The notes below the pieces were generated by a model. It was not told the DNA's origin, did no database searches, and worked only from the letters and a program-made list of their open reading frames with translations. Below, piece after piece: positions 23,756 to 27,657 of a stretch of DNA of 64,000 nucleotides. The first letter of the stretch is position 1; each line of letters begins with the position of its first letter. The position numbers and the translations under genes were made by a program. Source of the DNA: Candidatus Entotheonellaceae bacterium (GTDB taxonomy: Bacteria > Tectomicrobia > Entotheonellia > Entotheonellales > Entotheonellaceae); contig OZ250173.1 in the NCBI GenBank assembly GCA_965238075.1, forward strand, positions 1-64,000. The letters run 5' to 3'.

Positions 23756-24955
23756 ATGGCTGGTCCCTTGGAAGGACTGAAGGTCCTCGAGCTCCTCCGC
23801 GTGCCCCCTGGCGCGTTTTGCACCATGATGCTCGCCGACATGGGCGCCGAAGTGGTGAAGATCGAAACGCCGGTGGCGGCGACACCGGAGCAGATGGCAC
23901 AAGCTGAACGGCGAGCGGCTTTTGAGTTTGTTAATCGTAACAAGCGCAGTATCGCCATCAATCTGAAGCAACCAGACGGTCAGCAGTTGCTGCATCAACT
24001 CGCAGCCGACGCCGACGTGCTGGTCGAAGGCTTCCGGCCTGGCGTCATGGCGCGCCTTGGCGGCGACTACGAAACGTTGAAGCGCGTCAACCCGCGCCTT
24101 ATATACTGCTCGCTCAGCGGCTACGGACAGGACGGCCCGCACCGCGACCAGCCGGCACACGACATCAATTTCCTATCCATCGCCGGAGTACTCAACCTGA
24201 TCGGTGAACTCGACCGGCCGCCAGCGATTCCGCTCAACCTCATCGCCGATTACGCTGGTGCTTCCTTGCACGGCGTCGTGGGCATTCTCCTCGCCCTGCT
24301 GGCGCGGCAGCACACCGGGCGCGGGCAACTTGTCGATGTGTCGTACCTGGACACGTCGCTCGCCCTGCTGGCGGCCACCCCGATGATGCAGGACTTCCTT
24401 CTTAACGGCGCTGATAGCCGCCGCGGCACTGGCCTGGTGGGAGGCTCGTATCCGCATTACACTACGTACGAAACTGCCGACGGCAAGGCGCTGGCGGTTG
24501 GTTGCACGGATGCGGAGCAATGGGACGCCTTCTGCAAGGTGATCGGGCTGGGGGGTTCGGCCGAAACCGGTCCCGACGGGGCGTGTCCGGACCGTGCCGC
24601 CGATGGCGCGACGCAAGCCGCGAGGGCAGTCGTGCAAGCGGTTCTGAGACGAAAGACGAGGGATGAGTGGTTTGCGATTTTTCGGGACAAGCAGGTGAGC
24701 GCTGCGCCGCTGTACGCAGTGGACGAGGCGTTTGACGATCCGCAGGTCCTGGCTCGGCGGATGGCGGTCAATGTGGTCCACCCGCGTCACGGGTCGGTGC
24801 GCCAAGCCGGCATTGCCATCAAATTGTCTGACACATCGGGCAGTATTCGCGGCGCCGGGCCGGCGTTAGGCGAGCACACCGATGAAGTTTTGCGGGTGCT
24901 GGGGTATGACGAAACCAAGCGGGTAGAATTGCGCCAGGCCGGCACGGTGGCCTGA
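23756..24955 (+). CDS. CaiB/BaiF CoA-transferase family III
   Basis: LADMGAEVVKIE, NRNKRS, EGFRPG, SGYGQDGP, IADYAGA, LGEHT. Confidence 0.92.
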   Translation: MAGPLEGLKVLELLRVPPGAFCTMMLADMGAEVVKIETPVAATPEQMAQAERRAAFEFVNRNKRSIAINLKQPDGQQLLHQLAADADVLVEGFRPGVMARLGGDYETLKRVNPRLIYCSLSGYGQDGPHRDQPAHDINFLSIAGVLNLIGELDRPPAIPLNLIADYAGASLHGVVGILLALLARQHTGRGQLVDVSYLDTSLALLAATPMMQDFLLNGADSRRGTGLVGGSYPHYTTYETADGKALAVGCTDAEQWDAFCKVIGLGGSAETGPDGACPDRAADGATQAARAVVQAVLRRKTRDEWFAIFRDKQVSAAPLYAVDEAFDDPQVLARRMAVNVVHPRHGSVRQAGIAIKLSDTSGSIRGAGPALGEHTDEVLRVLGYDETKRVELRQAGTVA

Positions 24956-24984: not shown

Positions 24985-25335
24985 ATGAAAATTCACCGAC
25001 TGTACGAGGATGAGAACGGTATCTCGCACTTTGAGGACGTTGACATCGAATACGTAGAGACGACCCACGCGGGACGGCTGTCGCGGCGCCTGCCGGCGAC
25101 GGGCATTATCTTTCGGGAAGTTCCGCCGGATTATGATCTCGACTGGCACCCGGCGCCGCGCCGCCAGTACATCATCAACCTCGACAACGGGGTGCAAATC
25201 ACCGCCAGCGACGGCGAGGCCCGCACGATTGCAGCGGGCGAGGTGGTTCTCGTCGAGGACACCACGGGCAAAGGGCATCTGAGCAAGGCGATCAATGATC
25301 GTATACGCCATTGCATCTTTGTGGCGTTGGATTGA
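24985..25335 (+). CDS. Small cupin-like protein
   Basis: DENGISHF, WHPAPRRQ, EDTTGKGH; GGAGG RBS before ATG 24985. Confidence 0.8.
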   Translation: MKIHRLYEDENGISHFEDVDIEYVETTHAGRLSRRLPATGIIFREVPPDYDLDWHPAPRRQYIINLDNGVQITASDGEARTIAAGEVVLVEDTTGKGHLSKAINDRIRHCIFVALD

Positions 25336-26029
25336 GGGCGGCCTGTAGCCTCGCTCGGCGGCGGTTCAATATGGCGTACCCGCCCAGGCATAACAGCAGG
25401 GCCGCCAGCGCCATGAGGACGAGCATCCGCCAGTCGCTCAAATGGGCGCCGAACGTTACCATCAAGATCGTTGCAGGGATGATGCCGACGGCCGTGGTCC
25501 AGCTAAACCGCCACCAGCTAATGGTGGTCAGGCCGAGGGCGAAATTGATCAGGTTGAAGGAGATAACTGGCAGGAGGCGCACGGCGAGCAGGATAGGTAT
25601 GTCGATTTGCTGCAACCAATGCTGCGAGCGTTCAAGCCTGGCAGGGCTGACCAGCAGGCGCAGCACAGGCTGCCCGAAGGAACGGGCCAGCAGGAAACCC
25701 AGGTATGCACCCAGCAGGGCGCCGACCCAAATGGTGACAAACCCCCACAGCGGCCCAAGCGCCATGCCCGCCGCCAAAGCCAGGAACTCGGCCGGCACGG
25801 GCACCAGGGTGTGCAAGATCATCAGTCCGATTATGACAAGAGGCAGCCAAACAGGAGTGGAAGCGAGAAGGCGTTGCACGCCTTCGGTGTTGGGATTGGT
25901 GACCAGCGCCCAAAGCGTCTCCCGCAGCGGTGCCGATAACCCAACCCATAAGAGCAGCCCCAGTAGTCCTAAAACCACGCCCAGGCGCATCGCCTGCCCG
26001 AGCAGGACTGGCAGCGGCGGTTTCTGCAT
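25292..26029 (-). CDS. TVP38/TMEM64 (VTT/DedA-like) membrane protein
   Basis: PVPAE..ALAAG, RLLPVISFNLINFALG; start ATG 26029; 3' end overlaps the convergent cupin gene. Confidence 0.85.
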   Translation of the reverse strand: MQKPPLPVLLGQAMRLGVVLGLLGLLLWVGLSAPLRETLWALVTNPNTEGVQRLLASTPVWLPLVIIGLMILHTLVPVPAEFLALAAGMALGPLWGFVTIWVGALLGAYLGFLLARSFGQPVLRLLVSPARLERSQHWLQQIDIPILLAVRLLPVISFNLINFALGLTTISWWRFSWTTAVGIIPATILMVTFGAHLSDWRMLVLMALAALLLCLGGYAILNRRRARLQAALNPTPQRCNGVYDH

Positions 26030-26081
26030 TGTCCTGCGGCTCCTTCTTGTCCCGGCATCAGCGGACCGTATCAACGAAAGG

Positions 26082-26825
26082 TCACCAAACGTTTTGCGGT
26101 AGAGGTAACCCGGCAAAATCTTTGGCCGCCAGCGGCGCTTCGGGTGTTACGCCCATCTGGTCGAGCAGATCGTATAGCTGCCGCAGATGCTGCGCCGTGT
26201 GCCAAACGGTGCGCTGAAAGAACGCCGCTGCCTGCTGTGGGCCGTAATAGGTTTCCACTGTACCATCGAACGCCTCGGGCCGACCCCACCAATCGTGCAA
26301 ACGGTGGCGCACTCCCTCGCCGTACTGCGCAATGGCTGCCATGTCGGGCATATCTGGCGGCGGTTGCTCCTCAAACCAGGCTTCCGGGAGATGGCCCTGC
26401 TCCATGGCGTCGCGGTACGCCTGACCGACCCGGAACAGGTGGTAGGCGAGTTGATACACTGAGCGGTCGCGCCCCGGCGTCCGCATGTACATATGCTGGG
26501 CCGGAACCTGCATGATGGCCCGTTGCGCGGCCTGCAGAATCGTGTTGAGGCGCGTCTGCAGTTCCGGCAGTGGCAACGCCAAGCCATCGTCGTAGGTCAC
26601 CCCAACCAAATCTGCCACCGCCGCCGGATTCCATCCGTGCACCGCGCGGTCTCTAACGATTACCGCAGGCACCCGCGTGATCCCATGCCCGTGCAGCGTA
26701 TCCATGGCGTCCGGCTGCGCCTCGACATCAATCGCCTCGAAATCGACCTTCCACGAAGCAAGCAACTCTTCCAGAGCGCGGCATGAACTTCAACCCACCC
26801 GCTTATAAAGCCTCACGGTTTCCAC
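26082..26825 (-). CDS. Selenoprotein: glutaredoxin-like (UxxC) domain fused to a DinB-like domain
   Basis: GTG 26825 with GGAGA RBS gives METVRLYKRVG-U(TGA 26792-26790)-SSCRALEELL, in frame with the 227-aa ORF; Grx motifs IDVE, VPAV, GWNP; DinB motifs QLAYH, HTAQH. Confidence 0.82.
26762..26779 (-). promoter_or_regulatory. Candidate bacterial SECIS hairpin
   Basis: GCGCUCU-GGA-AGAGUUGC stem with a bulged U; G-containing loop begins 17 nt after the UGA. Confidence 0.55.
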
Positions 26826-27084
26826 AGGTATCTCCAGTTTGATTGACACTTGACCAGCGCACAATTTCATTAAAGCAGAGGCATTAAAGCTGATTCCCGT
26901 ACGCAAAGCAAAAGGGATGCGTCTTCCAGAGGCCCAAGTGTGAGGAGAATGACTGACTCGGTACACCGATTCTGGTGGGTGGGAGCGGGCGGGAAGCGGT
27001 TAAAACGCGGCACGACGGTTGGTGGAATTACGTAGAACGAATCTTTTTCCGTGGTATGACCCGGCCTCATACATACGCCAAGGG

Positions 27085-27657
27085 CTATGCGTGTCGCCAA
27101 CTGCGCACGGGTCCTGTGTCAATGTGAACGTATTTGGAGCGCGGGTAGTAACCAACACCACCCTGCTTAAGGCTCAGAGCCACACGGCGAACGGACTTGG
27201 CGCTGTGTCCGGGAATGCGAATGTCTACCGCCTTGCCCTTGACGTGGAAACTGCCCTTGGCGGCCGCCGAATTACGGCGTCGGAGCCGATCGTTGGTGGC
27301 CGGTGAGCGGTAGCCGGATATAATGTTGATCGTCCCCTGGGCCTCGAGTTTCCTGACAATGTCGTGGATGAGGTTAAACAATCCGGGATCGATTTCAGTC
27401 ACCTTGCCGTTATGAGGGTCCCGCAGAAAATGGTTGAGCGCTTTCAACGCATCGGGCACATACTCGCCTTTCACCCAATACGCCACCTTGATGCTTTCGC
27501 CAGTCAATGCGTTGTGTAATTTCAGGGATCGATTGATGTGATGCGGCCACCCCAGGGATGGAGAGAGACTCGTCGCAATAAACAGAGTACCCATGCGGAG
27601 GACTTGGCGGCGGCTCAGTCCATCCGTGTGCGCCGACTGGATGATGGGGCGTGTCAT
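27085..27657 (-). CDS. YcbK/DUF882 (MepK-like) peptidase M15 with Tat signal
   Basis: SRRQVL Tat motif, SGYRSPATN, SFHVKGKAVD, GGVGYYP..YVHIDTG. Confidence 0.9.
   Translation of the reverse strand: MTRPIIQSAHTDGLSRRQVLRMGTLFIATSLSPSLGWPHHINRSLKLHNALTGESIKVAYWVKGEYVPDALKALNHFLRDPHNGKVTEIDPGLFNLIHDIVRKLEAQGTINIISGYRSPATNDRLRRRNSAAAKGSFHVKGKAVDIRIPGHSAKSVRRVALSLKQGGVGYYPRSKYVHIDTGPVRSWRHA

Follow-up and report, generated by a model that had tools for sequence, protein, structure and literature searches.

An in-frame TGA very probably read as selenocysteine in an Entotheonellaceae gene for a glutaredoxin-like/DinB fusion protein

An in-frame TGA in a gene with widespread relatives

Whether a TGA close to the 5′-end of a bacterial gene ends translation or is read as selenocysteine (Sec) is the question raised by a minus-strand gene at 26082-26825 of the window, by which we mean the whole 64,000-nucleotide (nt) stretch of the Candidatus Entotheonellaceae contig OZ250173.1 analysed here. 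The open reading frame (ORF) called mechanically at this locus begins at TTG 26765, 9 codons below an in-frame TGA, and the original prediction held that the gene reaches 20 codons further, through this TGA (26792-26790), to a GTG preceded by GGAGA; the sequence agrees with that layout (Table 1). From the GTG, 11 codons specify V/M-E-T-V-R-L-Y-K-R-V-G and are followed by the TGA and then by S-S-C-R-A-L-E-E-L-L, with AGT TCA TGC as the first three codons 3′ of the TGA, and the frame runs uninterrupted from there to the terminal TGA at 26084-26082. Every candidate start codon lies upstream of the in-frame TGA, and the GGAGA ribosome-binding site is kept in four of the five same-genus orthologues (L040, L041, L042 and L044), the fifth (L043) having GGAGGAG ahead of an upstream ATG. 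On the comparative evidence given below, the gene very probably encodes a selenoprotein in which a UxxC glutaredoxin-like domain is fused to a DinB domain. Decoding of UGA codon 12 as Sec by the organism's own SelA/SelB/SelC/SelD system is strongly supported, as is the description of the predicted product as a cytoplasmic protein of 247 residues in a widespread family with Sec and cysteine (Cys) forms.

Table 1. Positions in the window of the Grx-DinB gene and its features, all on the minus strand
Feature	Position	Strand	Remark
Whole gene	26082-26825	-	247 codons plus stop; one in-frame UGA (putative Sec12); glutaredoxin-like plus DinB_2 fusion
GGAGA ribosome-binding site	26832-26836	-	5 nt 5′ of the GTG start
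Most likely start codon, GTG	26823-26825	-	second in-frame GTG at 26816-26814
In-frame TGA, codon 12, very probably read as Sec (U12), position 1 of the U-S-S-C redox motif	26790-26792	-	
TGC codon of Cys15, putative resolving cysteine of UxxC	26781-26783	-	invariant across the 48-sequence alignment
Candidate selenocysteine insertion sequence (SECIS) A, the hairpin of the original prediction	26755-26791	-	GGA loop 17 nt after the UGA, upper stem of 5 base pairs (bp), bulged U
Candidate SECIS B, overlapping A	26751-26781	-	interrupted stem, AGUUG loop, GU at +26/+27, -7.0 kcal/mol, 3-bp upper stem
Glutaredoxin/NrdH-like thioredoxin-fold domain, residues 4-74	26604-26816	-	includes invariant cis-Pro-type P53
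DinB/YfiT-type four-helix bundle	26157-26570	-	helices 86-105, 123-143, 162-180 and 199-223
His129 codon, first of the putative metal-binding His triad	26439-26441	-	invariant in alignment A1; at least 90% conserved in 48 sequences
His209-x3-His213 in the last helix, second and third of the putative His triad	26187-26201	-	both invariant in 48 sequences

The TGA is conserved among relatives. In 14 of 61 related genomes, 16 full-length matches were found, of which 15 were flagged with one internal TGA and in the sixteenth this TGA is present too, with a slip of 1 nt in a run of A behind it. A wider scan, taking one genome per species and overlapping in part with the 61-genome set, kept the best 80 of 205 relatives; the 80th locus lacks its N-terminus at a contig end, so that 79 loci could be compared. 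The aligned codon is TGA in 78 of these and TGC in one, from Microbacterium (L062). The loci among the best 80 are labelled as Tectomicrobia ('Candidatus Entotheonella'), Rokubacteria/Methylomirabilota, Terriglobia, Binatia, Delta- and Gammaproteobacteria, Syntrophobacteraceae, Verrucomicrobiia and Dehalococcoidia/SAR202, in addition to the one Microbacterium. The three residues after the aligned codon are FSC in 40 of the 79 loci, SSC in 23, FTC in 14 and TSC in two, and conservation at the protein level flanks the TGA on both sides, with (V/L)-Y-x-x-x-G before it and x-x-C after it. Across an alignment of 48 sequences, G11, U/C12, C15, P53, G64, R119, G195, H209, H213, L214, Q216 and P243 are invariant.

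Two of the larger, Entotheonella-type genomes (G007 and G013) hold two paralogues each, one of the SSC type and one of the FSC type, with about 28% identity and with the TGA in both (second copies L038/L112 and L039); the FSC type is the dominant form in Dehalococcoidia/SAR202. Damaged copies were also seen: L046 (the same locus as L027) has a one-base slip in the A-run immediately 3′ of the TGA (1236-1289), L051 (the same as L029) has a frameshifted stretch in the middle of the DinB domain, and L106 has an additional in-frame stop 10 codons past the TGA.

Alignment with Cys homologues places the TGA at the first Cys of a glutaredoxin CxxC, as had been predicted, within the motif G-U-S-S-C. 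Among the 120 best relatives in a large protein collection, the only full-length protein is P0111, which reads C-S-S-C at the site; of the other 119 (172-231 residues) none covers more than 92% of the query, and they are named, where a name is given, 'DinB family protein', 'uncharacterized damage-inducible protein DinB', 'Glutaredoxin' or 'hypothetical protein', with downstream starts that vary between gene callers to give products of 207, 221 or 227 residues. A profile search of representatives at 50% identity returned 221 proteins at E up to 1e-30, and among the best 150, which were examined, G-C-x-x-C stands near the N-terminus in 54 and H/D-C-S-S-C in five more (at least 59 Cys forms), one has Ser at both motif positions, and the remainder mostly start past the motif, as expected if gene callers cut the Sec forms at the UGA. 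With the natural Cys homologue P0111 as the query, 16 ESM Atlas clusters with both domains were found around it. The truncation by standard pipelines foreseen in the original prediction is thus borne out: public databases carry the Sec forms N-terminally shortened, cut at the UGA, across many bacterial groups.

The host genome (3.35 Mb in a single contig, 62% G+C) holds the machinery for Sec. Its tRNA-Sec scored 73.9 bits against a cut-off of 47 and was called tRNA-SeC with anticodon TCA by ARAGORN, selA (606.7 bits) and selB (357.7 bits) adjoin each other, and selD scored 318.8 bits, all four lying above curated cut-offs. In a small test, selA was present in all four of the other TGA-form genomes tested, in one of them in pieces, and it was not found in the single Microbacterium genome with the Cys form, the completeness of all these genomes being unstated. 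The divided selA belongs to the genome of L049 (G061:C6:254468-255625) and consists of several adjacent pieces in different frames, which suggests either frameshift errors of the assembly or a broken gene.

In-frame TGA codons in other genes of the host genome were sought by a rough scan for read-through ORFs, which gave 9593 candidates with the first filters and then 23343. Coding-score and Cys-context filters reduced these to 90, from which 14 were chosen by eye for a family search and 76 were left out, so that the list is not a complete selenoproteome. All 14 match families with known selenoproteins. Six score over curated '(seleno)protein' cut-offs, namely three UGSC proteins, a GrdB-type reductase subunit, an ArsC-family protein and a SelW/T/H-family protein, and eight score under them (two UGSC-like, two PrdB-like, one ResA-like, one Rcas_1661-like, one rhodanese-like and a small YruB-like glutaredoxin). 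Judged by this evidence, Sec is in use in the organism, apparently in many genes.

Twelve in-frame-TGA genes outside the window lie on G000:C1 at 1107274-1107810, 2942306-2942869, 189693-191390, 2110852-2111373, 2668167-2668688, 1388495-1389841, 82883-83536, 3343433-3344137, 2947153-2948346, 2325425-2326429, 398004-398249 and 2660851-2661402. They comprise five genes of the UGSC type (one with a long C-terminal region), one GrdB-type, two PrdB-like, one SelW/T/H-type and one rhodanese-like gene, together with a ResA-like (WATW-U-GIC) and a DsbG/Rcas_1661-like (U-PHC) gene, and most show hairpins of 5-13 bp with GU in the loop. Two small selenoprotein genes stand in tandem at G000:C1:1008582-1009205 on the minus strand: one is of the ArsC family, with U-TTC, at 122.6 bits (cut-off 85), and the other is a stand-alone YruB/NrdH-like glutaredoxin with U-GPC, at 71 bits and under its cut-off, a single-domain relative of the N-terminal domain of the Grx-DinB protein.

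Two domains and a possible role for the selenol

Domain searches were run with Cys substituted at the TGA position. Pfam Glutaredoxin (PF00462) matched residues 4-61 at 33.9 bits (cut-off 22.9); no NCBIfam model reached its cut-off, the best being YruB-/NrdH-type glutaredoxin-like models at 40-41 bits against 86-89. By PDB profile the N-terminal domain matched 7c10 ('Glutaredoxin') at 4.4e-21, followed by BC3987 and NrdH-redoxins, and by Foldseek it was superposed on E. coli NrdH (1h75) with a root-mean-square deviation (rmsd) of 1.4 Å over 71 columns. For the C-terminal domain, the PDB profile search returned the DinB-like proteins 3dka, 3gor, 2qe9 and 1rxq, and Foldseek returned DR0053, YjoA, BH3987 and YfiT with TMt of 0.64-0.79 (structures including 6iz2, 3dka, 2f22 and 1rxq), with TMt of 0.72-0.79 to 6iz2, 3dka, 2f22 and 2p1a. 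An AlphaFold2 model built on the 48-sequence alignment is a confident single body (predicted local distance difference test, pLDDT, 93.9; predicted template modelling score, pTM, 0.90), in which the two domains are predicted to pack rigidly and helix 1 of an NrdH/YruB-like glutaredoxin fold opens with U12-S-S-C15; no solved chain spanning both domains was found by Foldseek (TMq at most 0.49). The conservation of the three His residues of the DinB domain (H129, H209 and H213) suggests that they may bind a metal.

The original prediction had stated that the DinB superfamily includes His-ligated thiol S-transferases, and this background holds: part of the text of PMC10950700 describes the DinB-fold proteins BstA and MST as S-transferases that act on bacillithiol and mycothiol with the help of a metal, which has conserved His residues as ligands and at which mycothiol binds. 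Because the two folds are joined and the metal-thiol chemistry of BstA and MST is known, a mechanism can be drawn by analogy in which both domains serve one site, and this shared-site selenol mechanism is plausible, if tentative. The DinB metal site would activate a thiol for S-transfer, and the selenol/thiol pair built into the fused redoxin domain would either attack as the nucleophile or, as a reductant, resolve an adduct that had formed at the metal site. A system of the thioredoxin-reductase type would return the oxidised Se-S bond to its reduced state, as with NrdH, and the enzyme would then be a self-contained selenol-dependent detoxifying transferase or reductase. The broader function put forward in the original prediction, Sec-dependent redox chemistry or thiol conjugation, is a reasonable proposal in view of the two folds.

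A further possibility, less likely than not, is that the selenoprotein keeps its active sites apart, with the DinB domain using a free low-molecular-weight thiol and the Sec redoxin recycling adducts or disulfides, or else docking or regulating. Known DinB-fold transferases do employ free metal-bound thiols, according to the same part of PMC10950700, and the genome also has Sec and Cys redoxins of this type as separate proteins (L131); on the other side stand the family-wide retention of a fusion with a short linker and the single rigid body of the AlphaFold2 model, neither of which is decisive. Taken in its full form, the shared-site proposal describes an uncatalogued widespread family whose redoxin Sec acts directly at the His3-metal site of DinB, as a 'seleno-S-transferase' or a reductase, and we hold this to be rather doubtful. 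If true, a built-in selenol would replace the free low-molecular-weight thiol of BstA/MST-type enzymes, a second and independent route to a glutathione S-transferase (GST)-like enzyme would exist, and the family would be prominent in SAR202/Dehalococcoidia, Rokubacteria, Binatia and sponge-associated Entotheonella.

Candidate SECIS hairpins and other readings of the TGA

The bacterial SECIS (bSECIS) model in the Fig. 2 legend of PMC13188914 has a loop of 3-9 nt, an upper stem no shorter than 4 bp, a G in loop positions 1-2, a spacing of 16-37 nt between UGA and loop, and a minimum free energy of at most -7.5 kcal/mol. The hairpin named in the original prediction (hairpin A) does exist, with its spacing and bulged U as described: its core GCGCUCU-GGA-AGAG(U)UGC (26779-26762) has -4.2 kcal/mol alone and -8.8 kcal/mol with a lower stem that incorporates the GA of the UGA, and in that form it agrees with all four bSECIS criteria. 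It is, however, indistinct from about 30% of the synonymous recodings of the genus, and hairpin A by itself is not beyond chance in the window's genus. The AGUUG loop and the position of the overlapping hairpin B are those of the conserved hairpin of the orthologues. Of the 14 other in-frame-TGA genes of the genome, 13 have a GU within the apical loop, at a distance of 17-29 nt counted from the UGA's first base, which fits hairpin B rather than hairpin A. One sister species has AGCUG in place of AGUUG, and the same change strengthens hairpin A; either hairpin may be the working SECIS in the window's genus.

As a test for a SECIS, the stability of the first 57 nt 3′ of the UGA as a whole, set against synonymous recodings, was dropped in favour of the bSECIS criteria: family-wide it showed a modest shift, with a mean z of about -0.9 to -1.3, and the window's genus showed none. 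The scan for these criteria began 5 nt after the UGA and thereby missed the window's own lower stem; when it was repeated from the UGA on eight sequences, three of the five genus sequences passed, the window's included. In other genera, 50 of 66 distinct sequences passed, against 76 of 396 synonymous recodings, with the reservation that kin do not count as independent. Outside the window's genus, 28 sequences retain a stem of 6 bp capped by an A-G-U-U-(G/U) loop, with one compensated pair that is AU in 20, GC in eight and broken in none, and the Dehalococcoidia-type genes have a separate stem with a GC/UA compensated pair. The orthologues of other genera have a hairpin that is clearly under selection.

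Several observations weigh against the reading as a Sec-containing Grx-DinB enzyme. For the five sequences of the window's genus, the stability of the 57-nt stretch 3′ of the UGA does not exceed that of synonymous recodings (z +0.08 to +0.92), the bSECIS criteria in the scan begun 5 nt after the UGA were passed by two of five sequences and by nine of 30 recodings, and the ancestral 6-bp stem of the orthologues retains four of its six pairs, persisting as the interrupted hairpin B; the hairpins of the genome's other in-frame-TGA genes are mostly stronger, with stems of 5-13 bp and -4.6 to -18.4 kcal/mol. The Pfam match to DinB_2 (PF12867, residues 106-217) is marginal, at 26.7 bits against a cut-off of 24.8. 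The contigs from metatranscriptome libraries that run across the gene cannot show transcription and permit no inference on expression, and across about 80 loci no neighbouring gene is common to the whole family, which leaves the surroundings without a functional clue.

Reading of the TGA as a residue other than Sec, whether as Trp or Cys by near-cognate decoding or through a reassigned stop, is very unlikely. The gene itself terminates in TGA, here and in four of the five same-genus orthologues, so these genomes do use TGA as a stop; homologues have Cys, the usual partner of Sec, at the aligned position; and the genome has the full Sec machinery together with many further genes of Sec families, selA accompanying the TGA form in each of the four genomes tested and not being found in the one with the Cys form.

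That the TGA is an ordinary stop, with a product of 227 residues from TTG 26765 and 11 non-coding codons upstream, is hardly to be believed, even though gene callers give this form in 119 of the 120 closest database relatives and no SECIS signal above background is seen in the window's genus. A product so shortened would be without strand 1 and the entire active-site motif, whereas the Pfam match begins at residue 4 and the Cys forms are full length; the codons 5′ of the TGA show conservation at the protein level that spans phyla, and the gene callers do not agree among themselves on the downstream start (207, 221 or 227 residues).

The stretch is present, whole or in part, in 20 public runs of nine studies, and contigs from four runs of four studies were compared with it, two from metatranscriptome libraries and two from libraries of no recorded kind. 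The contigs of all four span 26000-27100 and retain the TGA at 26790-26792 without a difference, where TGC or TGT would have counted against Sec; up to 36 differences from the window occur in them, none at the TGA, and one, at 26820, changes Glu2 to Asp, as in the sister species. The TGA is not an assembly error. A pseudogene, or a TGA arising from such an error, can be dismissed despite the frameshifts or extra stops in the relatives L046, L051 and L106, given the unaltered codon in these runs, the TGA shared by 78 of 79 loci, which come from many independent assemblies, and a remaining frame that is intact and conserved.

Relation to known families and surrounding genes

A Sec-containing glutaredoxin (Grx, PF00462, UxxC) is listed among the experimentally verified selenoproteins in Table 1 of PMC13188914. 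It shares with the present protein a thioredoxin fold with Sec first in a UxxC near the N-terminus, but it is a single-domain protein, whereas the Grx-DinB protein adds a C-terminal DinB_2 domain of about 165 residues and has a redoxin part nearer to the NrdH/YruB type than to glutathione-binding Grx. The NrdH/YruB proteins (TIGR02194, TIGR02196; PDB 1h75, 7c10, 3zij) are those that the N-terminal domain matches best, in sequence as in structure; the present protein differs from them in being a fusion, in having Sec for Cys and in having no link to ribonucleotide reductase that could be seen, and it scored below the NrdH-redoxin cut-offs (TIGR02194, 40.2 against 85.75 bits; NF007657, 38.8 against 131). 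With BstA/YfiT and MST it shares the four-helix bundle and the conserved His triad, in a superfamily whose chemistry, as far as the cited part of PMC10950700 goes, is metal-assisted thiol transfer. It differs from these in its N-terminal redoxin domain, at 13-19% identity in the Foldseek alignments, and under the shared-site hypothesis it would not require a low-molecular-weight thiol partner. The Cys counterparts of the family are the Grx-DinB fusions P0111 and L062 and those of the ESM Atlas clusters with the automatic names 'DinB family protein', 'glutaredoxin domain-containing protein' or 'NrdH-redoxin family protein', which have the same two domains and the same invariant residues and differ in having Cys for Sec.

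The UXX-star selenoproteins (NF041212, NF041211, NF047338 and NF045501) have a glutaredoxin-like fold and gave weak profile matches, below the cut-offs at 30.5 against 66, 24.4 against 100, 24.4 against 97 and 14 against 325 bits; going by their family names, their Sec lies three residues from the C-terminus and not in an N-terminal UxxC, and they have no DinB domain. Canonical GSTs likewise place a thioredoxin-fold domain before a helical domain that builds the substrate site, but this is an analogy only, as the helical domains are unlike (Foldseek TM about 0.3, rmsd 12-16 Å).

No DinB entry stands among the 119 prokaryotic selenoprotein families in Table 1 of the 2026 review (PMC13188914), and the word 'DinB' is absent from the text, supplementary tables excluded, of that review and of the Global Ocean Sampling (GOS) selenoproteome paper. 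Full-text literature searches, judged from listings, gave nothing relevant on DinB with selenoprotein or selenocysteine, on Entotheonella selenocysteine or on a Grx-DinB fusion. Part of the text of the GOS paper gives a 'Grx-like' family with UxxC and 42 sequences, which could in principle include N-termini of the Grx-DinB family. The Sec glutaredoxin, the DinB fold and the Cys-form fusions are known parts; what appears to be new is the Sec form of this architecture, widespread and systematically mis-annotated. With the Sec form, the known selenoproteome of prokaryotes would gain both a family and the DinB (S-transferase-like) fold, and the same annotation error recurs through public data. DinB-fold proteins are abundant and their function is mostly unknown. 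A Sec/Cys redox pair fused to DinB points to thiol or selenol chemistry and would offer a testable model for DinB function, and the occurrence of the family in marine SAR202, soil Rokubacteria and Binatia, and sponge symbionts bears on the selenium demand of these groups.

Among the neighbouring genes, the commonest is a GMC oxidoreductase, near 20 of 79 loci. A CoA-transferase III gene is nearby in six of 80 loci, all from the window's genus or Microbacterium, and MmgE/PrpD in two of 80; this association was considered as a functional clue and rejected as too sparse. The sites at which it was observed are the window at 23756-24952 (plus strand), L062 at 333-2957, and the representative P0219 (721 residues), in which an MmgE/PrpD domain pair is fused ahead of the Grx-DinB unit. 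Directly 3′ of the selenoprotein gene, a gene for a VTT/DedA-type membrane protein occupies 25295-26116 on the minus strand of the window; from its mechanically called start, TTG 26116, it would share 35 nt with the end of the selenoprotein gene, and an alternative ATG at 26029 gives a non-overlapping product of 245 residues with a complete VTT domain.

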